From Natrialbaceae archaeon (GTDB lineage Archaea; Halobacteriota; Halobacteria; Halobacteriales; Natrialbaceae): a stretch of 44,193 nucleotides of DNA. Below are positions 3,779 to 39,199 of the stretch, in pieces; position 1 is the stretch's first letter; each line of letters begins with the position of its first letter. Where the stretch lies: assembly GCA_035269625.1 (NCBI GenBank), contig DATFIX010000311.1, forward strand, positions 1 to 44,193, given 5' to 3'. The position numbers and the translations under genes were made by a program. The notes under the pieces were generated by a model. It did no database searches, was not told the DNA's origin, and saw only the letters and a list, made by a program, of their open reading frames with translations.

Positions 3779-4174
3779 ATGGAACGGCTCTCGATATCCA
3801 CCGATACCCGATTGACGACCGTCGACGTGACCGACCGAGTCGCCGACGTCGTTCCCGAGGGAACGACCGGAACGTGTACGGTCTTCGTCCCCCACACGAC
3901 GGCCGGCATCGTCGTCCAGGAAAACGAAACCGGGCTCCGTGAGGACCTGGAAACGATGCTCCGGGACGTCGTCGCCGACGACGGGTGGGCCCACGATCGC
4001 ATCGACGACAACGCGGACGCCCACCTCCGGGCGACGCTACTGGGGCCGAGCGTCACCGTTCCAGTCGAGGACGGGGACCTGGCGCTCGGGACCTGGCAGT
4101 CCCTCCTGTTCGTCGAGTGTGACGGCCCTCGTTCTCGAACGATACGCGTGACCGTGACCGACGAGGCAGAGTGA
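3779..4174 (+). CDS. YjbQ/UPF0047 family protein (secondary thiamine-phosphate synthase-type)
   Basis: Family-typical motifs: MERLSISTDTRLTTVDVTDRV...CTVFVPHTTAGIVVQENE...DDNADAHLRATLLGPS...GTWQ. ATG at 3779 is preferred over the TTG at 3734. Confidence 0.8.
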   Translation: MERLSISTDTRLTTVDVTDRVADVVPEGTTGTCTVFVPHTTAGIVVQENETGLREDLETMLRDVVADDGWAHDRIDDNADAHLRATLLGPSVTVPVEDGDLALGTWQSLLFVECDGPRSRTIRVTVTDEAE

Positions 4175-7289: not shown

Positions 7290-9143
7290 TTATTCGAGGA
7301 CGACGAGCGGGTCGCCCATGTCGACGCTCTGGTCCTCCTCGATGGGGACCTTCGCGACCGTCCCGCCCTGGTCGGCCACGATGTCGTTCTCCATCTTCAT
7401 GGCCTCGAGGACGCAGACGACGTCGCCCGCTTCGATCTCGTCGCCTTCCTCGACGTTGACTTCGAGGATGGTACCCTGCATCTCGGCCTCGATGACGCCT
7501 TCGCCCGCCGCGGTCGTCGCGCCGCCACCGTCGCCGTCGCCGCCGGCGGCCTCGGGTCGCTGCTGCTGGGCAGCGCCACCGCCAGCACCGCTGATGTCGA
7601 GGCCCTCGAGATCGATCGCGGCACCGCCGCGCTCTTCGAGGTTGACCTCGAAGCGCTTGCCGTTGACCTCGACCGTGAAGTCACGCTCGGTGACTTCCTC
7701 CTCTTCCTCGGGGACCTTCGTCTCGGTGCCCCACTTCTCCTGGGCCTCCTCGATCTTTTCGCGGTCGAGGTGGTCGTCCAGGTACTTCGTGCTGTGGCGG
7801 CCGATGAGGAACTCCTCGTCCTCGAGCATCATCCGGTGGAACGGGATGATGGTGACGACGCCGTCGATGTCGAACTCGGCGAGTGCGCGCTTCGAGCGCT
7901 CGATACACTCGTCGCGGTCCTCGGCGTGGACGATGAGCTTCGCGATCATCGAGTCGTAGTCCGTCACGAGCTCGTCGCCCTGGCGGAGCGCGTCGTCCAT
8001 CCGGACGCCGATGCCGCCCGGCGGGTCCCACGTCTCCAGGGAGCCGCCCGTCGCGGGCGCGAACTCGTCGGCGGCGTTCTCGGCGTTGATACGGAACTCC
8101 ATCGCGTGGCCGCGCAGGTCCACGTCGTCCTGCGAGAAGGTAATCTCGTCGTCGGCGGCGACCCGGAGCTGCCACTTGACGATGTCGATACCCGTCAGTT
8201 CCTCGGAGACGGTGTGCTCGACCTGAATCCGGGTGTTGACCTCCAGGAAGTAGAAGTTCGTGTCGGCGCCGAGCATCTCGCCCTTCTCGCGGTCCTCGTC
8301 CTCCTCGACGAGGAACTCGACGGTGCCGGCGTTCGTGTATTCGGCCGCGCGGACACCCTCGCGGGCAGCCTCGCCGATCTTCTCGCGAAGCTCGTCGTTG
8401 ATGGCCGCACTCGGGCCCTCCTCGATGAGCTTCTGCTGGCGGCGCTGGAGCGAGCAGTCACGCTCGCCGAGGTGGCGCACGTTGCCGTGGTGGTCCGCCA
8501 GGATCTGCACCTCGATGTGGCGCGGGTTCTCGAGGAAGCGCTCCACGAAGACGGAGGGGTTGTCGAAGTACGCCTCGCCCTCGCGCTGGGCGCTCTCGAA
8601 CTTGTCCTCGATCTCGTCCGCGGACTGGACGACCTTGAACCCGCGGCCGCCACCGCCACCCTCGGCCTTGATGGCCACGGGGTAGCCGTGTTCCTCCGCG
8701 AATTCCTCGATTTCCTCGGGGCTCTCGACCGGATCCTCCGTCCCGGGGACGATCGGAACGTCCGCGTCGGACATGATCGAGCGGGCCTCGGTCTTCTCGC
8801 CGAGGGTCTTCATCGATTCGCTCGCCGGGCCGACCCAGGTGATCCCCTCGGTCTCCTCGACCTTGCCGGCGAATTCGGCGTTCTCCGCCAGGAACCCGTA
8901 GCCGGGGTGGATCGCGTCCGCGTCCGCCTTCTTCGCTGCCTCGATCACGGACTCGTGGTCGATATAAGAGTCAGCAGCACGAGCAGGACCGATGTTGTAC
9001 GCCTCGTCAGCGTATCGGACGTGACCCGAATCTTTGTCAGCGTCGCTGTACACCGCTACCGTGTCAATACCAAGTTCCTCGCATGCGCGCATAACGCGCA
9101 CGGCGATTTCGCCGCGATTGGCGACCAGGACCTTATCGAACAT
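7290..9143 (-). CDS. Acyl-CoA (acetyl/propionyl-CoA) carboxylase alpha subunit: biotin carboxylase fused to a biotin carboxyl carrier domain
   Basis: [21 protein letters not shown]...[14 protein letters not shown], an ATP-grasp core, and a C-terminal biotinyl domain with [10 protein letters not shown]. Confidence 0.9.
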
Positions 9144-32585: not shown

Positions 32586-33296
32586 CTACCCGAATAGCCG
32601 ACCGAGGTCGATCGTCGGTCGAACCTCGGCCTCCAATCGGTCCAGCGCGTCCCAGAGCGTCGCCTGGTTGCTCGTGACGACCGGTTTGTCGAGTTCCCGC
32701 TCCAGTTCGGGGATGATATCGAAGGTGCGATAATTGGTACAGGAGATGAACACCGCGTCCGCGTCCGGATCGTCGACGTTGCGGGCGGCGTCTGCTGCCG
32801 TTTGGGGATCCTGGGCGCCGATCTCGGTATTCGAACTGAGACCGAGACCGTCGATGGCGACGACGTCGTACCCGGCCGCCTCGAGAAATTCGGCTTCCCG
32901 CCGGTTGAGATCCTCGATATAGGGCGTCGTCACGGCGACGGAATCGACGTCGAGGACGTCGAACGCGCGCTTGATCGACGCTGCCGTGGCGACCGCCGGG
33001 ACGCCGGCCTCCGCCTCGAGACGCGCCTCGATGTCCTCGTCGTAGCCGGGACCGTGGACGAGACTGCCGGTCGTACAGCCGTACGCGACCACGTCGACCT
33101 CGGCCGACGCAAGGAGACTGGCACACTCCGTTGCGTCGTCGGCCATGGCGGACAGCGATTCGGCATCGACGTCGGCGAGTCGCATTCGCGACGCGTGAAG
33201 CGAGACGCCATCGGGCAGTGCCCTGGCGAACTCGGGTTCGTTGGTCGTGTTGGACGAGGGGACGACGAGACCCACGCGGCCGTCTTTGCCGTACAT
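32586..33296 (-). CDS. Asp/Glu/hydantoin racemase superfamily protein (maleate isomerase/arylmalonate decarboxylase-like)
   Basis: RVGLVVPSSNTTNEPEF, with two catalytic Cys motifs: AYGCTTGS and FISCTNYRT. Start at MYGKDGR. Confidence 0.8.
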   Translation of the reverse strand: MYGKDGRVGLVVPSSNTTNEPEFARALPDGVSLHASRMRLADVDAESLSAMADDATECASLLASAEVDVVAYGCTTGSLVHGPGYDEDIEARLEAEAGVPAVATAASIKRAFDVLDVDSVAVTTPYIEDLNRREAEFLEAAGYDVVAIDGLGLSSNTEIGAQDPQTAADAARNVDDPDADAVFISCTNYRTFDIIPELERELDKPVVTSNQATLWDALDRLEAEVRPTIDLGRLFG

Positions 33297-33418
33297 GGTT
33301 TGGAGTACCGAGTGAACAACACGCAAGCGCACACGAAAAGGGTTCTTAAGAATTCGAACGAACCTTTCACAAGCGTTCATACGACCGAGGGGCCCAACTG
33401 ACACCGCGGAGAAAACGA

Positions 33419-33961
33419 TCAGTCCGTCTGCTTGATGAGTACCTTCGAGACGCTTTCCTCGACCTCGACCTCGAACGGCAGGTCCGTCGTACTCCTGCGG
33501 ATGAACCGAGTCATGAACCACCGCATTTCCTTCGAGGGGAACACGACGTGATACGTGTCCTTTTCGAAATTCCGGACGGTGAGAAAGCCACAGATAGAAA
33601 GCCAGTCCAGCAGTTCTCCGATGTTATTGAACCGTTCCGCGTATTCCTTCGCATGGTACTCCGACACCCGATCTACGGCCTCCATGAACTCGTCGTCGGG
33701 TTCGTCGAGGTCGGTATTTCGGAGGAACGCGTGGAAAAAATCGATGTCGAGAAGGACGTGCTCCCCGCCCGAGAGCATCTGGTGATAGTCCGTCAGGTTT
33801 CCACCACTCTCGATCGAGGCCGCCACGTCGTAATTCGTCGCATAGAACTTCAGTGCGTCCCGCACGACGGAGCTTTTCCCGTTTTGGGTTCGTTTGACGA
33901 GATCGTCCAGAGCGTCGTTGGCGTCGTCATCCAAGGAAACCGTCACGCGCTCCTGAGTCAT
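33419..33961 (-). CDS. Ribbon-helix-helix (CopG-like) domain protein with a C-terminal domain of unknown function
   Basis: N-terminal RVTVSLDDDANDALDDLVKRTQNGKSSVVRDALKFY fits the RHH pattern. Visibly lower GC than the flanks. TATA-like TTTATG lies about 25-30 nt upstream of the ATG. Confidence 0.7.
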   Translation of the reverse strand: MTQERVTVSLDDDANDALDDLVKRTQNGKSSVVRDALKFYATNYDVAASIESGGNLTDYHQMLSGGEHVLLDIDFFHAFLRNTDLDEPDDEFMEAVDRVSEYHAKEYAERFNNIGELLDWLSICGFLTVRNFEKDTYHVVFPSKEMRWFMTRFIRRSTTDLPFEVEVEESVSKVLIKQTD

Positions 33962-34125
33962 ACGTCGATTTGGCGTTTGGGAGGCATAAAGATGCGGAAA
34001 GCAGGATGGACGAAATTTTTTGGAGAAACAATTTTCACGCTGTCAATTCTTCCCACCGGTTCACTCGGTTCCTGCGACTCGGGTTTACTCAGCCCTTCGC
34101 CCCACACCAGCGAATCGAGAACTTC

Positions 34126-34158
34126 TTCGCGAAAACGTGTTCCGGCAGGGATTTGAAC
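34126..34158 (-). repeat. Degenerate duplicate of the tRNA-Glu 3' end (21 nt) plus 12 nt of its 3' flank; att-like scar or tRNA pseudogene fragment
   Basis: 29/33 identical to 34240-34272 (offset 114 bp, same orientation). The 5' side of the T-stem is not conserved, so it cannot fold as a tRNA. Confidence 0.6.
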
Positions 34159-34251
34159 TCGCCCAGAAATGCTCGCTTCGCTGCGCCTTTCTGGTCTGCT
34201 CAAATCCACTGCATGTCGAATTCTCCGCTCACGATATTGTTCGCGGAGAAG

Positions 34252-34326
34252 TGCTCCGGCAGGGATTTGAACCCTGGTCCTTGCCGTGAGAGGGCAAGAT
34301 GATTGGCCGGACTACACCACCAGAGC
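34252..34326 (-). tRNA. tRNA-Glu (anticodon CUC)
   Basis: Minus-strand read: GCTCTGGTGGTGTAGTCCGGCCAATCATCTTGCCCTCTCACGGCAAGGACCAGGGTTCAAATCCCTGCCGGAGCA. The acceptor stem is 7 bp (one G-U pair). The anticodon loop is CUCUCAC. The T-loop is GTTCAAATC. No CCA is encoded. Confidence 0.9.
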
Positions 34327-34350
34327 GCATTCGGTGATTGTCCCTATCCC

Positions 34351-34358
34351 AATTTAAC
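34351..34358 (-). promoter_or_regulatory. TATA box candidate (TTAAAT) for tRNA-Glu
   Basis: The A/T hexamer lies 26-31 nt upstream of the tRNA 5' end on the minus strand. Confidence 0.4.
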
Positions 34359-34518
34359 CGTTGTGTTTTGGTGGTGCTGTGGTTCGGTTTGGCGAACCGA
34401 ACGTACTCCCGGAGTCGTTCCCACGATGGTCCCCGGGTGCCAGTGGACCTCGGCAGTCGAAGGACGTACTCCAAGGCGCGGCTGAAAGAATGTGAAACGC
34501 TCACCGTTTTCTCCCGCA

Positions 34519-34620
34519 GATTCATACGGCTGATGGGTGGAGTACACGTGGTTCTTAACTATTCTTTTTGCTGTTGATGGGTAACATGCGACTGGTTGTG
34601 AACGAATTGCTATGAACGAT
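34519..34620 (+). repeat. Copy A of a 102-bp direct repeat (promoter and leader module) upstream of pxpA
   Basis: Ungapped alignment with 37668-37769 gives 80/102 identical, and 52/58 in the core 34543-34600. Contains the A/T box TTCTTAACTATTCTTTTT and a 9-codon mini-ORF. Confidence 0.8.
34586..34615 (+). CDS. Conserved 9-codon mini-ORF (MRLVVNELL), candidate leaderless leader peptide
   Basis: The ATG lies about 27 nt downstream of the conserved TTAACTAT box. Its stop overlaps the next ATG (ATGA at 34612-34615). A positional homologue exists at 37735-37764. Confidence 0.3.
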   Translation: MRLVVNELL

Positions 34621-34740
34621 ATACCTCGATCCGGGCCAGGGTACCACTGGGAGGACACCGACGGAGCGGATTTCGAACCATCTCGTCGTGCCGACGGTCA
34701 CGATAGGTATAATCGGATGACAACTGAAGAGGTGAACTGA
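34612..34740 (+). CDS. 42-codon upstream ORF ending 1 nt before the pxpA ATG
   Basis: MNDIPRSGPGYHWEDTDGADFEPSRRADGHDRYNRMTTEEVN. Its ATG is positionally homologous to the NRAMP start codon in repeat copy B. GC3 is modest, so coding status is uncertain. Confidence 0.25.
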   Translation: MNDIPRSGPGYHWEDTDGADFEPSRRADGHDRYNRMTTEEVN

Positions 34741-34741
34741 G

Positions 34742-35515
34742 ATGACATCGGAATACGCGGTCGACCTGAACTGTGATCTGGGAGAGGGCTTCGGCGCGTA
34801 CAGTATCGAAATCGACGAAGCGGTGATGGAGACCATCTCGTCCGCCAACGTGGCCGCCGGGTTTCACGCGGGCGATCCGATGGAACTGGAGAACACGGTA
34901 GAATACGCGAAGAAATACGATACTGCGGTCGGTGCACATCCTGGCCTCCCTGATCTGCTGGGCTTCGGGCGACGGCAAATGGAGGTCACCACCGACGAGG
35001 TGAGAAACTACGTCACGTACCAGGTCGGTGCCGTTCGGGCGTTCTGTAACCGGGCCGGTGTCGAACTGCAGCACGTGAAGCCCCACGGAGCGCTGTACAA
35101 CATGGCCAGCAACGACGAGGCGGTCGCGACCGGGATCATTCAGGCGTTAGACGGGGTACCCGACAGTCCGTCACTGCTTGCCCTGTCGGGGTCGAAATTC
35201 GCGACCATGGCCGAAGCGGCGGGGCTGGACGTTCGCCACGAGGTGTTCGCCGACCGGGCGTATAACCCGGACGGGACGCTGGTGTCGAGGCGTCGGGACG
35301 GCGCGGTCATTCACGATCCCGATCGCCTGGCAGAGCGAGCCGTGAGAATGGTCAAAGAAGGGCAGGTGGAGACGATCGACGGGGAGACGCTGGAGCTCGA
35401 GGTCGACTCGATCTGCGTCCACGGCGACAGCGCCGAGGCGACTGAAAACGTCGCCCGATTGAGCGACGCGTTCGAGGAGGAGGGGATATCGATCGCGCCG
35501 TTGAGAGAGCTATGA
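34742..35515 (+). CDS. pxpA: 5-oxoprolinase subunit A (LamB/YcsF family)
   Basis: VDLNCDLGEGFGAY...ANVAAGFHAGDP...GAHPGLPDLLGFGRR...KPHGALYN...ICVHGD. SD-like AGAGGTGA lies 7 nt upstream. Confidence 0.9.
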   Translation: MTSEYAVDLNCDLGEGFGAYSIEIDEAVMETISSANVAAGFHAGDPMELENTVEYAKKYDTAVGAHPGLPDLLGFGRRQMEVTTDEVRNYVTYQVGAVRAFCNRAGVELQHVKPHGALYNMASNDEAVATGIIQALDGVPDSPSLLALSGSKFATMAEAAGLDVRHEVFADRAYNPDGTLVSRRRDGAVIHDPDRLAERAVRMVKEGQVETIDGETLELEVDSICVHGDSAEATENVARLSDAFEEEGISIAPLREL

Positions 35516-36273
35516 ACGAACGAACACAGTGGGCCGATTTGACGTTCAGGCCGATCGGGGACAAGGCGATCCTCGTCGAACTCACGCGCGAAATCGATCC
35601 CGAAACCAACAGGAAGGTACGGAACCTGTGGGCAGCGCTGGAAAAAGAGCCGATCGACGGGCTGGGTGAAATCGTCCCCGGATACTGTTCGCTGCTGGTC
35701 TATTACGACCCGTCCGAAATTCGTTCGGACGCGTTGCGAGCGGAGATCGAAGCCGTGGCGGGAAAGATCACGGAGATCGAACTCCCGCCCCCAAAGGTGT
35801 ATCACCTCCCCGTGCTGTACGGTGGCGAGATGGGTCCCGATCTCGATTTCGTGGCCGAAGAGAACGATCTCACGCCGCAGGCGGTCATCGACGTCCACAC
35901 GTCTAGGGAGTACCTGATCTACATGATCGGGTTCTCGCCTGGATTCCCCTATCTGGGCGGGATGTCGGAAGACATCGCCGCGCCCCGTCTGCCCGATCCA
36001 CGGACCGTGACGCCCGCCCGGTCGGTCGGCATTGCCGAAACCGAGACCGGCGTCTACCCTGTGGAAAGTCCGGGTGGCTGGCGGATCATCGGACGGACCC
36101 CGGTGGAACTCTTTACGCCGGAAGAGGATCCGCCCGTGCTCCTGGAAATGGGGGATTACGTGAAGTTTTACGAGATTTCCGCGGATCGATACGAGGAGAT
36201 CCGGGAAGCGGTCGAACAGGGGACCTACGAGGTAGAAATCACCGAACTGGAGGCCGAAACGCATGTCTATTGA
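35512..36273 (+). CDS. pxpB: 5-oxoprolinase subunit B (KipI/allophanate hydrolase subunit 1 family)
   Basis: FRPIGDKAILVEL...VPGYCSLLVYYDP...YMIGFSPGFPYLGG...TGVYPVESPGGWRIIGRTP. ATGA overlap with pxpA. Confidence 0.9.
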   Translation: MNERTQWADLTFRPIGDKAILVELTREIDPETNRKVRNLWAALEKEPIDGLGEIVPGYCSLLVYYDPSEIRSDALRAEIEAVAGKITEIELPPPKVYHLPVLYGGEMGPDLDFVAEENDLTPQAVIDVHTSREYLIYMIGFSPGFPYLGGMSEDIAAPRLPDPRTVTPARSVGIAETETGVYPVESPGGWRIIGRTPVELFTPEEDPPVLLEMGDYVKFYEISADRYEEIREAVEQGTYEVEITELEAETHVY

Positions 36274-37480
36274 AATCGTCGATCCGGGGTCGTTCACCAC
36301 GGTTCAGGATCTCGGTCGCAACGGGTACCAGAAGTACGGCATCCCACCGTCCGGCGCCATCGACCCGCATTCGCTCCAGTTGGCGAACCTCCTGGTCGGC
36401 AACGAGACGGGCGAAGCGGGACTGGAAGCCACCATCTCGGGCCCGACGATCGAGTTCGCGGAAGCAACGTGGTTCGCCATCGCCGGAACGGAGTGGGTGC
36501 CTCGGCTGAACGACAGCGAAATCCCGCTCTGGCGGTCGGTTCGGGCAGAAGCGGGGGACACGCTATCGTTCGACGAGGCCGACGAAGGGGCACGAGCCTA
36601 CATCGCGTTCTCCGGTGGCGTCGACGTTCCCCCGGTCCTCGGTAGCAAATCGACGAACGTCAGGGCGGAGATCGGCGGCTTCGAAGGGCGACCACTCCAG
36701 CAGGGGGACGTCCTCGACATCGGAAGCGGGAACGACGTCACGGCCCAGGAGCTTCCGGAGCGATATCGGCCGGACCCCGACTTCGACGACGTCCGGGTGA
36801 TTCTCGGCCCCCAGGACGACCATTTCAGCGACGCCGGGATCGACACGTTCCTCGATTCGACGTTTACGGTCCAGTCCGACTCCGACCGGATGGGACTCCG
36901 GTTCGACGGTCCGTCGATAGAACATTCGACGGGTGCTGACATCATCTCGGAAGGAACGGCCGGCGGTGCCGTCCAGGTCCCCGAGAACGGGAAGCCAATC
37001 GTTCTCCTTTCGGACCGACAAACCACCGGCGGATACGCCAAAATCGCGACCGTGATCGACGCCGACCTGCCGAAACTCGCCCAGATGCGGCCGGCGGACG
37101 AAGCGTCGTTCAGCGAAGTTTCGCTGGACGCGGCGTACGAGGCACGGGAGCGGCAGCTAGAAACGATAGCGGAGGTCGAACGGCTCCTGCAGGACGAAGC
37201 ACTGATCGCCGAGGAACCCATCGAAACCACGGATGAAGGCCGGACGGAAGAATCGACCGGGGACGAACGGTGGGTAACCGCAACGATGCCCGGCGAGATA
37301 ATCGCGATTCACGTATCGGAAGGCGACGAGGTCGAGATGGGAGACGACCTGATCGTCTACGAGGCGATGAAGATGGAAAACGTCCTCACCGCCCCGGCCG
37401 ACGGCGTGGTTTCCAGAATCAACGTCGGTGAAGGGGACTCGGTGGACAACGGTGAAGAACTGTTGAGCGTGAAGCGATAG
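36263..37480 (+). CDS. pxpC: 5-oxoprolinase subunit C (KipA/allophanate hydrolase subunit 2 family) fused to a C-terminal biotinyl/lipoyl carrier domain
   Basis: The N-terminal roughly 320 aa: IVDPGSFTTVQDLGRNGYQKYGIPPSGAID...SDRMGLRFDG...GAVQVPENGKPIVLLSDRQTTGGYAKIATV. The C-terminal roughly 70 aa: ATMPGEIIAIHVSEGDEVEMGDDLIVYEAMKMENVLTAPADGVV, with the carrier Lys codon at 37370-37372. Confidence 0.85.
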   Translation: MSIEIVDPGSFTTVQDLGRNGYQKYGIPPSGAIDPHSLQLANLLVGNETGEAGLEATISGPTIEFAEATWFAIAGTEWVPRLNDSEIPLWRSVRAEAGDTLSFDEADEGARAYIAFSGGVDVPPVLGSKSTNVRAEIGGFEGRPLQQGDVLDIGSGNDVTAQELPERYRPDPDFDDVRVILGPQDDHFSDAGIDTFLDSTFTVQSDSDRMGLRFDGPSIEHSTGADIISEGTAGGAVQVPENGKPIVLLSDRQTTGGYAKIATVIDADLPKLAQMRPADEASFSEVSLDAAYEARERQLETIAEVERLLQDEALIAEEPIETTDEGRTEESTGDERWVTATMPGEIIAIHVSEGDEVEMGDDLIVYEAMKMENVLTAPADGVVSRINVGEGDSVDNGEELLSVKR

Positions 37481-37667
37481 TCCGCACATCCAAACGGTCG
37501 TGGAATACATCGCAAACGCCGATCCGTTCGATTACTCCGGGGCGATCGAGGTCATCGATTGTAGCGTCATCTCGATGAATCAATCACCGACTCGAAACAG
37601 CTCGTGAAACTCGATCCGACACAATCTTGCGTAGTGAGTGTGACAGCCTCCTCCGTTCGCGGGTGAG

Positions 37668-37769
37668 GATTCATACGTCTGATGCAGGAGTTACACGGGA
37701 TTCTTAACTATTCTTTTTGATGGTGAGGGGTAACATGGGACTGGTTGTGTATAAACAACTATGAATATT
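37668..37769 (+). repeat. Copy B of the 102-bp direct repeat, upstream of and overlapping the start of the NRAMP gene
   Basis: See copy A. The offset is exactly 3149 bp with no gaps. Confidence 0.8.
37735..37764 (+). CDS. Conserved 9-codon mini-ORF (MGLVVYKQL), candidate leaderless leader peptide
   Basis: Same position and frame as 34586-34615. Its stop overlaps the NRAMP ATG (ATGA at 37761-37764). Confidence 0.3.
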   Translation: MGLVVYKQL

Positions 37770-38969
37770 GTACAACGGCTCAAGGCCATCGGCCCTGGGG
37801 CGATGGTTGCAGCGGCCTTCATTGGTCCTGGGACGGTGACGACGGCAAGCGTGACGGGAGCGGAATTCGGATACGCGCTGTTGTGGACGATCGCGTTCTC
37901 GATCGTCGCGACGATGATTCTCCAGGAGATGAGTGCCAGGCTGGGACTCGTCTCCGGCGAGGGGCTGGGTGAAGCGCTTCGGGAACGGTTCGATACGCAA
38001 GTGGTGGAGTACCTGGCGATATTCCTCGTCGTCAGCGCAATCGGTATCGGGACCGCAGCCTACGAGGCCGGGAACATTCTGGGCGGCGCGGCAGGATTGG
38101 CGACGATTACCGGCGTCGACGCGCGAATCTGGGGCATCATCATGGGAGTCGTCGCGGGCGTGTTGCTCTTTACCGGGCAGTACAAGCTCATCGAGCGGGC
38201 ACTGGTGGGGCTCGTGGTGATCATGGCCCTCTCGTTCGTCGCCTCGGCGATCCTCATCGGTCCGGACGTCGGCGACATCGCCGTTGGATTCGTTCCCAGT
38301 GTCCCCGAGGGATCGGCCTATCTCATCACCGGCCTGATCGGGACCACGATCGTCGGATACAACCTGTTCCTGCACGCGAGTAACGTTCAGGAGCGGTGGG
38401 GTGGCCCCGAAGACCTCGAAGAATCACGGACGGACACGATCCTGTCGATCGCCGTGGGTGGTATCATCACGATGACGGTGCTGATCACCGCCGCGGCCGC
38501 CTTCCCGGTGGGGACGGAGATCAGCGACGTCGGAAAGATGGCCGAACAACTGAAGCCACTTGCCGGCCCGTACGCGAAGATGTTCTTCAGCATCGGCCTG
38601 TTCGCGGCCGGGTTCACGAGCGCGACCACCGCGCCACTGGCTGGCGCGTGGGCGACGACCGGCGCTCTTGGGTGGGACTCGGATCTCAAGAGCCCGAAGT
38701 TCCGTGCGGTCTGGGGCGTGATTCTCGTGGTGGGCATCCTGTCGGTGTTCCTGGGTGGCAGCCCGGTGCAAATCATCGTCTTCGCACAGGTCGTGAACGG
38801 CGTGCTCCTCCCGATCGTGGCGATCTTCCTGCTCTATGCGATGAACGAGAACGACCTGCTCGGGGAGTACACGAACGGGCCAGTTGCGAACACGCTCGGG
38901 GCAATCGTGACGATTATCGTCGTCTGGCTGGGGATCCGAACCCTCCTCAGCGTGGCAGGAATAATCTGA
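37761..38969 (+). CDS. NRAMP family transporter (YcsG-like, linked to pxp genes)
   Basis: LKAIGPGAMVAAAFIGPGTVTTAS...ILQEMSARLG, about 11 TM segments. The pxp-NRAMP linkage mirrors B. subtilis ycsF-ycsG. Confidence 0.85.
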   Translation: MNIVQRLKAIGPGAMVAAAFIGPGTVTTASVTGAEFGYALLWTIAFSIVATMILQEMSARLGLVSGEGLGEALRERFDTQVVEYLAIFLVVSAIGIGTAAYEAGNILGGAAGLATITGVDARIWGIIMGVVAGVLLFTGQYKLIERALVGLVVIMALSFVASAILIGPDVGDIAVGFVPSVPEGSAYLITGLIGTTIVGYNLFLHASNVQERWGGPEDLEESRTDTILSIAVGGIITMTVLITAAAAFPVGTEISDVGKMAEQLKPLAGPYAKMFFSIGLFAAGFTSATTAPLAGAWATTGALGWDSDLKSPKFRAVWGVILVVGILSVFLGGSPVQIIVFAQVVNGVLLPIVAIFLLYAMNENDLLGEYTNGPVANTLGAIVTIIVVWLGIRTLLSVAGII

Positions 38970-39199
38970 ATTCACAGGCGAATCGGATGGCGTGAGGTAG
39001 TGGAACTTCGTCTCCCTTTCTTCTGGCGCTGAATAGCAGTAGCGTGGCGGCCGCACAGGTGCACGCCCGAGAACGGGACCGACGTGGACGAGACGTTCGT
39101 CCGAACTCCGGTGGCGTCCTCGCACGCACCCGTGCGGTTGCCGGCCATTACCGGAGGAGGTAGACGGAAGAACACCGGAATAGCTCCGTAGGACGGCGC

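Follow-up and report, generated by a model that had tools for sequence, protein, structure and literature searches.

The systems closest to the locus described here are PxpR-pxpTABC of Corynebacterium glutamicum and ycsF-ycsG-kipIA of Bacillus subtilis, in which an NRAMP-family transporter is linked to PxpABC and a regulator gene lies in the neighborhood (PMC13274462). In both bacteria, growth on 5-oxoproline depends on this transporter (PxpT in C. glutamicum and YcsG in B. subtilis), and the repressor PxpR senses the compound (PMC13274462). We have analyzed a 44,193-nt stretch (the window; contig DATFIX010000311.1 of assembly GCA_035269625.1) from a Natrialbaceae archaeon known only from metagenomes (L008 to L010), where a first-pass annotation had pointed to a 102-bp direct repeat with one copy (A) in front of pxpABC and the other (B) in front of an NRAMP gene. 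We consider it probable that this locus is a single regulon for the utilization of a lactam, probably 5-oxoproline, controlled by a ribbon-helix-helix (RHH) protein and rewired by promoter duplication. The repeat would act at the DNA level as a cis-regulatory module in which short subsites of the TTCAYAC type lie on both sides of an archaeal core promoter.

The similarity to the PxpR system extends to the position of the operator, in the promoter of the transporter, and would include substrate-responsive uptake together with ATP-dependent lactam hydrolysis. The transporter of the window was classed as the pxp-linked type through nine metagenomic relatives and not through the YcsG or PxpT sequences, and homology and the bacterial work suggest 5-oxoproline as both substrate and inducer (PMC13274462). 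There are several differences. The candidate regulator is an RHH protein instead of a GntR protein (no GntR gene was found among the genes examined around the locus), the promoter is of the archaeal type, and the PxpR palindrome AGATTGTTCAACAATCT is absent even with 3 mismatches allowed, which discards a PxpR operator. Moreover, the transporter and the enzyme do not form one unit but stand behind a copy of the module each, PxpC is fused to a biotinyl domain, and most relatives of the window locus use HyuAB in place of PxpABC.

On the regulator side, the operators of RHH proteins (the heptads of the omega protein of pSM19035, the met-boxes of MetJ, and those of CopG and Arc) consist of short repeated subsites in either orientation around the promoter, and most RHH proteins are repressors. 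The module resembles them in its 6- to 7-bp subsites, direct or inverted and roughly 10, 21, and 31 bp apart around a promoter, and in the adjacent RHH gene. It differs in the extra C-terminal domain of about 130 amino acids (aa) of the protein and in the archaeal B recognition element (BRE)/TATA targets to which this protein would bind. Within haloarchaea, CdrS is also an RHH-domain transcription regulator, but it is a minimal RHH protein with no C-terminal sensor domain, and the genes that it controls, those of cell division, are unrelated to the ones discussed here (PMC7439475). Likewise, mntH (HVO_2674) of Haloferax volcanii is a haloarchaeal NRAMP gene with a defined upstream cis-element, controlled by SirR; however, mntH is another paralog, a true Mn transporter, and SirR belongs to the DtxR family (PMC10783522). 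A SirR operator was discarded here, as its motif, TTTwGAnnnnTCwAAA, is absent.

Copies A (34519-34620) and B (37668-37769), both on the plus strand, match without gaps at 80/102 positions, 69/82 in the first 82 nt, and 52/58 in the core string, which we re-read against the sequence; these counts and the offset of 3149 bp reproduce those of the first-pass annotation. A repeat finder returned the pair as 98 nt with 81% identity and a spacing of 3149 (family D10). Identity drops to the background, 27 to 30%, in the 100 nt on either side, and the chance expectation for such a pair in 44 kb is about 7e-19. A 39-nt motif has only two matches in the window, the copies themselves, even with 3 mismatches allowed. 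As had been claimed, the repeats bracket the pxpABC cassette, with copy A, pxpA-pxpB-pxpC (34742-37480), and copy B in sequence, and copy B runs into the NRAMP gene, whose ATG (37761) lies within it. The end of copy A, in turn, is 121 nt from the pxpA ATG (34742).

The origin of copy B is apparent from other haloarchaea. We fetched NRAMP orthologs by protein identity from Halorientalis pallida, Haloarcula hispanica, Haloferax sulfurifontis, and one Halorientalis metagenome-assembled genome (MAG), and the gene order in the four loci is RHH-NRAMP-HyuA-HyuB(-Amdase). Their RHH-NRAMP intergenic regions align with both copies of the window and share the pattern TTCAYACG-N5-T-N8-TRMAC-N5-TCTYAAC. 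When 185,579 species were scanned for this pattern, one genome each, 16 matches were found, 14 of them haloarchaeal (six in Haloferax, three in Haloarcula, three in Halorientalis, and one each in Halobium, Halorussus, and Halobacterium). Each of these 14 genomes has exactly one match, located about 90 nt upstream of the NRAMP ortholog. The two bacterial matches are in loci without these genes and are chance matches, about four of which were estimated from the information content of the pattern. Three further orthologs were anchored on the protein: Halorubrum sp. PV6 (L077, 6508-7000) has the motif with one mismatch and an extra TTCATAC upstream, Halococcus has a variant with a 1-nt shift, and L076 has its subsites inverted (GTATGAA and GTGCA). 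The motif is thus found about 90 nt upstream of NRAMP orthologs in at least eight haloarchaeal genera. As there is a single match per genome, always at the NRAMP gene, copy B is the ancestral promoter/operator region of the NRAMP-like gene and is neither mobile nor multicopy. The first-pass annotation had considered that the repeat might turn out to be a genomic element similar to a miniature inverted-repeat transposable element; copy number, the position at NRAMP, and the lack of terminal inverted repeats, none of which were found at the copies, lead us to reject a mobile repeat.

Copy A, on the other hand, is a derived copy whose age can be read from two related lineages. The sister lineage L027 has a layout identical to that of the window (Amdase and RHH genes on the minus strand, copy A, pxpABC, copy B, and NRAMP), with protein identities to the window of 95% for NRAMP, 88% for RHH, and 84% for pxpA; it was the only close locus useful for the repeat in a metagenome scan with the NRAMP protein, which gave mostly distant relatives (42 to 63%). 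L071 (MAG GCA_048626455.1) is arranged as tRNA-Glu, copy A, pxpABC, copy B, and NRAMP, in a contig that begins just upstream of the tRNA, with identities of 84% for pxpA and 80% for NRAMP. The orthologous A copies of the three lineages (window, L027, and L071) are identical at 84 to 88 of 96 positions and the orthologous B copies (window, L027, and L005) at 89 to 91 of 96 (91/96 between window and L027), while paralogous A and B copies share only 74 to 77 of 96. Since orthologs are more similar than paralogs, the duplication took place before the lineages diverged, and gene conversion has not homogenized the copies.

Both copies are also far better conserved than neutral sites. Element A is 88 to 92% identical across the three lineages, compared with 55 to 63% at the fourfold-degenerate sites of pxpA (Fisher P of about 1e-7), and element B is 95% identical between the window and L027, compared with 73% at fourfold-degenerate sites. 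The sequence just upstream of each copy can no longer be aligned between lineages. Identity so far above that of degenerate sites shows that copies A and B are under purifying selection and that copy A is not decaying. These data bear on the possibility that copy A is a functionless scar of the insertion of pxpABC, for instance by Campbell-type integration through the NRAMP promoter, with the repeats mainly allowing the cassette to loop out. That the repeats bracket the cassette, that copy A carries a truncated NRAMP start, and that a tRNA gene with partial copies of its 3' end adjoins it would all fit such a scar. However, the conservation of copy A next to unalignable flanks is not that of a neutral sequence, for which reason we reject it as an explanation and regard it as very improbable. 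The cassette-free form expected from excision by recombination, which had been proposed in the first-pass annotation, was not found in the contigs spanning the pxp-NRAMP junction that we inspected (three of the nine with an identical NRAMP, plus L005, L027, and L071), and A and B share no perfect stretch longer than about 19 nt, so this part of the proposal did not find support.

The A/B split predates a divergence that is nearly saturated, so the 80% identity that A and B still share indicates a parallel constraint on the same sequence. In a first comparison, none of the 26 columns conserved across genera differs between A and B, versus 11 of the 30 elsewhere, although this test is partly circular, the outgroups having been found with the search pattern. 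It was repeated with outgroups found only through the protein, and A-B differences then fell in 1 of 20 conserved columns and in 9 of 32 others (one-sided P = 0.04). The homology of copy A reaches a few codons into the NRAMP coding sequence (ATGAACGATATAC compared with ATGAACGTTATCC in Halorientalis), so copy A can be described as a duplicate of the NRAMP-type promoter/operator with its leader and a relic NRAMP start codon. Two explanations had been offered as alternatives for the repeat, a duplicated promoter of the recipient NRAMP gene and upkeep of the two units under a shared regulator. The first agrees with the orthologous position of copy B in at least eight genera, with the NRAMP start and first codons borne by copy A, and with a pxpA that has no close relative in cultured haloarchaea; the second agrees with the conservation of copy A above the neutral level in three lineages and with A-B differences that avoid the columns conserved across genera. 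The data support both, and they are complementary. We also observed that in copy B of L071 (3669-3760) the TRMAC block is replaced by GGGGG and divergence is about neutral, while copy A of L071 is still 92% identical, so that in this lineage the derived copy A is better preserved than copy B.

Counting from the TTCA as position 0, the blocks conserved across genera are TTCAYACG at 0, TRCAC at +22, TCTYAAC at +32, a T-run at +44, CGTGA/CATG at about +63, and the start codon at about +91. In copy A they correspond to TTCATACG (34521-34528), TACAC (34543-34547), and the core TCTTAAC-N5-TTTT (34553-34568), and the core of copy B is at 37702-37717. All A and B copies of the three lineages have an RTGTGA block (TCACAY inverted) at about -31 despite the non-alignable flanks; in the window it is the inverted heptad ATGTGAA (34490-34496, plus strand) in copy A and GTGTGA (37638-37643) in copy B. 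Three tandem TTCAYAC units recur every 10 bp in Haloferax, and several further units are present in Haloarcula. In 12 upstream regions we counted 19 TCAYAC/GTRTGA hexamers, about half of which are the anchoring copies themselves, versus about one in shuffled sequences. Copy B also contains GGATTCATA and GGATTCTTA 31 bp apart, and its ATTCATA pairs with TATGAAT at the start codon. The 10-bp array of Haloferax and the subsites of the window at -31 (inverted), 0, and about +21 form the kind of subsite array looked for in an RHH-type operator. The binding subsites would then be the inverted one at about -31, TTCAYACG at 0, TRCAC at about +21, and possibly more in the leader and at the start codon.

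Haloarchaeal promoters follow a grammar of a BRE (CGAAA), a TATA box (TTWT), and a WW element at -10 (PMC4983044), and the conserved TCTYAAC box with the T-run 5 nt downstream fits it. The core promoter would therefore consist of TCTYAAC as a BRE-like box followed by the T-run as TATA box. If the T-run is taken together with the TAA at +62 as the -10 element, the predicted transcription start is at about +70 to +74; if TTAACTAT is the TATA box, the predicted start is at +65, on the ATG of a 9-codon upstream open reading frame (uORF). This places the predicted starts at about 34586-34595 in copy A and 37735-37744 in copy B. An RNA element or riboswitch was rejected, as the whole window at the gathering threshold, and the surroundings of all copies at E <= 1, gave only tRNA matches in Rfam, single-strand folds of the repeat were no better than those of shuffled sequences (z-scores of -0.3 to -1.35), and the columns conserved across genera are upstream of the predicted start.

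The short open reading frame (ORF) that had been claimed in each copy does exist, with 9 codons in both (34586-34615 and 37735-37764) and a TGA that overlaps the next ATG. In copy A this ATG, the relic NRAMP start, opens a second ORF of 42 codons (ORF42, 34612-34740, plus strand) that stops 1 nt before the pxpA ATG. We can imagine that the conserved part is a transcribed leader, in which a leaderless uORF, its UGA overlapping the main AUG, and ORF42 would deliver ribosomes by termination-reinitiation, and that conservation serves translation instead of, or besides, transcription. The uORF is intact in all six well-conserved copies (A in the three lineages and B in the window, L027, and L005), being lost in the diverged copy B of L071, the leader half is the most invariant part of copy A, and comparable (A/G)TG...TGA-overlap ORFs occur in Halorientalis, Halobacterium KA-4, and Halobium. 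In the three lineages ORF42 remains open at a length of exactly 129 nt, while the other two frames have 2 to 4 stops, and 72% of Haloferax mRNAs are leaderless (PMC4983044). Nevertheless, Haloarcula, Haloferax, and Halorussus lack the uORF or have it out of frame, for which reason a role for it is not supported, and the T-run as TATA box with the WW element at -10 would put the start downstream of its ATG. ORF42 lacks a coding-type pattern, its substitutions being even over the codon positions with no third-position excess, and has a chance of about 0.4 of staying open at random. The columns conserved across genera are upstream of any plausible start site, and we consider a translational role of this kind quite improbable. 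ORF42 was rejected as a conserved small protein, as it has no Pfam match in addition to its even substitutions, but it may be a translated spacer coupled to pxpA.

The best candidate to bind the module is the RHH protein encoded at 33419-33961 (minus strand), a 180-aa CopG-type protein (Pfam RHH_1) with a C-terminal alpha/beta domain. The family has about 278 members, all of about 180 aa, of which every named one is haloarchaeal and none is characterized; literature searches returned nothing on the family or its regulon. Many His, Cys, Asp, Glu, Trp, and Arg residues are invariant in the C-terminal 120 aa. The AlphaFold model has a mean pLDDT (predicted local distance difference test) of 71, with values of 80 to 92 in the C-terminal half. 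In the window, the gene adjoins a third, diverged module (copy C, see below) and faces away from copy A. Its candidacy, already raised by the first-pass annotation, is backed by synteny: in 13 of the 14 genomes matching the pattern the RHH gene is upstream of the motif, with no intervening gene in 12, the 14th match being at a contig end, and it adjoins the motif directly upstream in L076 and L078. In Halobium salinum (L013, 1894-3622) an Exo_endo_phos gene is inserted between the RHH gene and the motif.

Given the repeated subsites around a promoter and the RHH gene next to it, all three modules are probable targets of the RHH protein, whose dimers would occupy the subsites around the core promoter of the three units. 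The C-terminal domain would sense a ligand, most likely 5-oxoproline or a related lactam, and set transcription accordingly. By analogy with PxpR and with most RHH proteins, we would favor a repressor that is released by the ligand. Alternatively, the module may be real but bound by another factor, either a global nitrogen or carbon regulator or a DUF7343/DUF7345 helix-turn-helix (HTH) protein, with the RHH gene as a syntenic passenger or acting elsewhere. A DUF7345/DUF7343 HTH gene does follow NRAMP in the window lineage, but this neighbor is specific to that lineage, whereas the association of the motif with the RHH gene holds across at least seven genera, and short direct or inverted subsites at helical-turn spacing are typical of RHH operators. 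In favor of another factor is the motif of Halorubrum sp. PV6, which has no adjoining RHH gene. On balance, we consider a different binding factor unlikely.

The third module, copy C (33296-33385, minus strand), is diverged and lies after the RHH stop (33419) and before the start codon of the Amdase-like gene (33296). Its sequence in the minus strand is GTATGAACGCTTGTGAAAGGTTCGTTCGAATTCTTAAGAACCCTTTTCG, with the inverted heptad GTATGAA (33382-33376), TTGTGAA, and the core TCTTAAGAACCCTTTT (33351-33336). It can be aligned in register with copies A and B and with other NRAMP promoters, the nearest being that of L076, which matches it at 35 of 54 positions and likewise has its subsites inverted. 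Without mismatches, the core pattern TCTYAAS-N5-TTTT occurs just three times in the window, at copies C (33336-33351), A (34553-34568), and B (37702-37717), with an expectation of 0.36 even with one mismatch allowed; the loci of other genera have one match each, and those of L008 to L010 and L027 have three. From its register, its similarity to L076, and its place among the three core matches, copy C is the positional descendant of the native RHH-proximal promoter, now facing the Amdase-like gene. In the stretch 33336-33367, the core of copy C is within an 18-nt imperfect palindrome centered on a perfect 10-bp palindrome, TTCTTAAGAA, a possible symmetric site for protein binding that would overlap the BRE-like box.

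Several points weigh against the regulon as we have described it. The binding of the RHH protein to the modules is deduced from synteny and subsites, Halorubrum sp. PV6 has the motif with no RHH gene beside NRAMP, and the C-terminal domain has no recognizable relative in the Protein Data Bank (PDB): Foldseek with the model gave nothing below E = 0.007, only weak matches to H-NOX/YslB-like and designed proteins, and a profile search of PDB sequences gave a weak match to the RHH part only. The ligand and the sign of regulation are proposed by analogy. Promoter activity and start sites are predictions from the sequence, the latter with an uncertainty of about 10 nt. The TRMAC block has been lost from copy B of L071, copy C does not stand out clearly from neutral sites when the window is compared with L027 (76% versus about 70%), and the first of the column comparisons was circular in part. 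The number of modules in this organism refers to the 44-kb window. Finally, a block just before pxpA (34700-34741, plus strand), nearly identical in the window, L027, and L071, contains a Shine-Dalgarno-like GAGGTGA (34729-34735) and a conserved TATAAT-like box (34708-34713). This box precedes pxpA by 30 nt and could be an independent promoter, so copy A is perhaps not the sole driver of pxpABC. A bolder version of the same regulon would make the 180-aa RHH proteins a new type of ligand-sensing haloarchaeal transcription factor, acting on TTCAYAC arrays that flank the core promoter, and would have the foreign lactamase wired in by a copied operator, promoter, and transporter translation start that feeds ribosomes through the 42-codon ORF into pxpA. 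We hold this version only tentatively, as possible but doubtful.

PxpA, PxpB, and PxpC homologs are all present, as PxpA (34742-35515) scores 350 bits with its subfamily model (cutoff, 226), PxpB (35512-36273) scores 206 with TIGR00370 (cutoff, 146), and PxpC, fused to a biotinyl domain (36263-37480), scores 335 with the domain model TIGR00724 (cutoff, 230) and 262 with the PxpC equivalog model, below its cutoff of 500; all three are on the plus strand. The closest pxpA sequences outside the lineage are 55 to 66% identical and come from Thermococcus, Acetothermia/Bipolaricaulota, and Clostridium, with no cultured haloarchaeon among the top 120 matches, and pxpABC was apparently acquired by transfer. 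HyuA and HyuB of the other genera have the caprolactamase subunits CapA and CapB as best models, with scores below the cutoff; they are ATP-dependent lactamases of a family different from PxpABC and are absent in the uncultured lineage of the window. Given the distant relatives of pxpA and the different family of HyuAB, this looks like a nonorthologous replacement of one lactamase by another. In the ancestral haloarchaeal state, the module directly after the RHH gene would drive the NRAMP-like transporter, HyuAB, and usually the Amdase-like enzyme. Rewiring would have involved the loss of hyuAB and the placement of a foreign, 5-oxoprolinase-type pxpABC behind a duplicate of the module (copy A), leaving the transporter on copy B and the Amdase-like gene on the third, older-type copy C. 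The transporter, the lactamase, and the Amdase-like enzyme are three separate units here, with one module each.

The Amdase/EutA-like gene (32586-33296, minus strand) encodes a member of the Asp/Glu-racemase superfamily and is the last gene of the NRAMP-hyuAB operon in other genera. Canonical NRAMP metal transporters carry the motifs DPGN and MPH. The NRAMP-family transporter of the window (37761-38969, plus strand; Pfam Nramp) lacks these metal-site residues, with GPGT in place of DPGN and VGY in place of MPH, and the same loss is seen in all of the more than 40 relatives retrieved (42 to 95% identity); the nine metagenomic homologs that adjoin pxpA(BC) also have GPGT/V(P/G)Y. The missing metal site, together with the linkage to HyuAB or PxpABC, favors an organic molecule over a metal as the substrate of this subfamily, and the database name "manganese transporter" is probably wrong for it. 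The G+C content is 0.50 to 0.66 across the RHH-pxp-NRAMP block (33300-39000) and 0.68 to 0.74 in the flanks. The NRAMP protein is 86 to 87% identical to that of Halorientalis and 73% to that of L076, while for the RHH protein these values are 56% and 71%. This contrast in G+C and the discordant relatives suggest a mosaic origin of the block by horizontal transfer.

The C-terminal biotinyl domain of PxpC (about 37274-37465), with the canonical EAMKME motif, is present in the window and in all close relatives. The beta subunit of Na+-pumping decarboxylases is the protein known as OAD_beta, and in a 74%-identical relative (L073, 306-4292) an OAD_beta gene precedes pxpA, pxpB, and pxpC::BCCP, with an Amdase-like gene adjoining. 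From the biotinyl fusion and this linkage, pxpABC may be a biotin-dependent variant and not a plain 5-oxoprolinase. The biotinyl part of pxpC (37311-37387, plus strand) also forms a 77-nt inverted repeat with 7380-7456 (minus strand; 75% complementarity, pair I1), a site that presumably encodes such a domain in another carboxylase gene. A tRNA-Glu(CUC) gene (34251-34326, minus strand) separates the RHH gene from copy A. A 17-nt stretch of its 3' end (34256-34272) has an exact copy at 34142-34158, 114 nt away on the RHH side, and a metagenomic variant (L010, about 3960-4095) has an extra 132 nt with a further partial tRNA copy. These partial copies look like scars of repeated integration at this tRNA gene and vary within the population.

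Our literature searches found no published regulator or cis-element for the NRAMP-lactamase-Amdase cluster. The system is previously undescribed yet conventional in kind, a promoter/operator module linked to a regulator and triplicated in one lineage. It provides a candidate regulator-operator pair for a cluster found in many haloarchaea, which comprises an NRAMP-like transporter, an ATP-dependent lactamase, and an Amdase-like enzyme. The three copies, together with their orthologs in the sister lineages, are a ready mutational series for defining the operator. The locus would also be a natural example of how an archaeal regulon is rewired, from an ancestral single operon to three units that carry the same module, one of which would drive a horizontally acquired enzyme of a different family.

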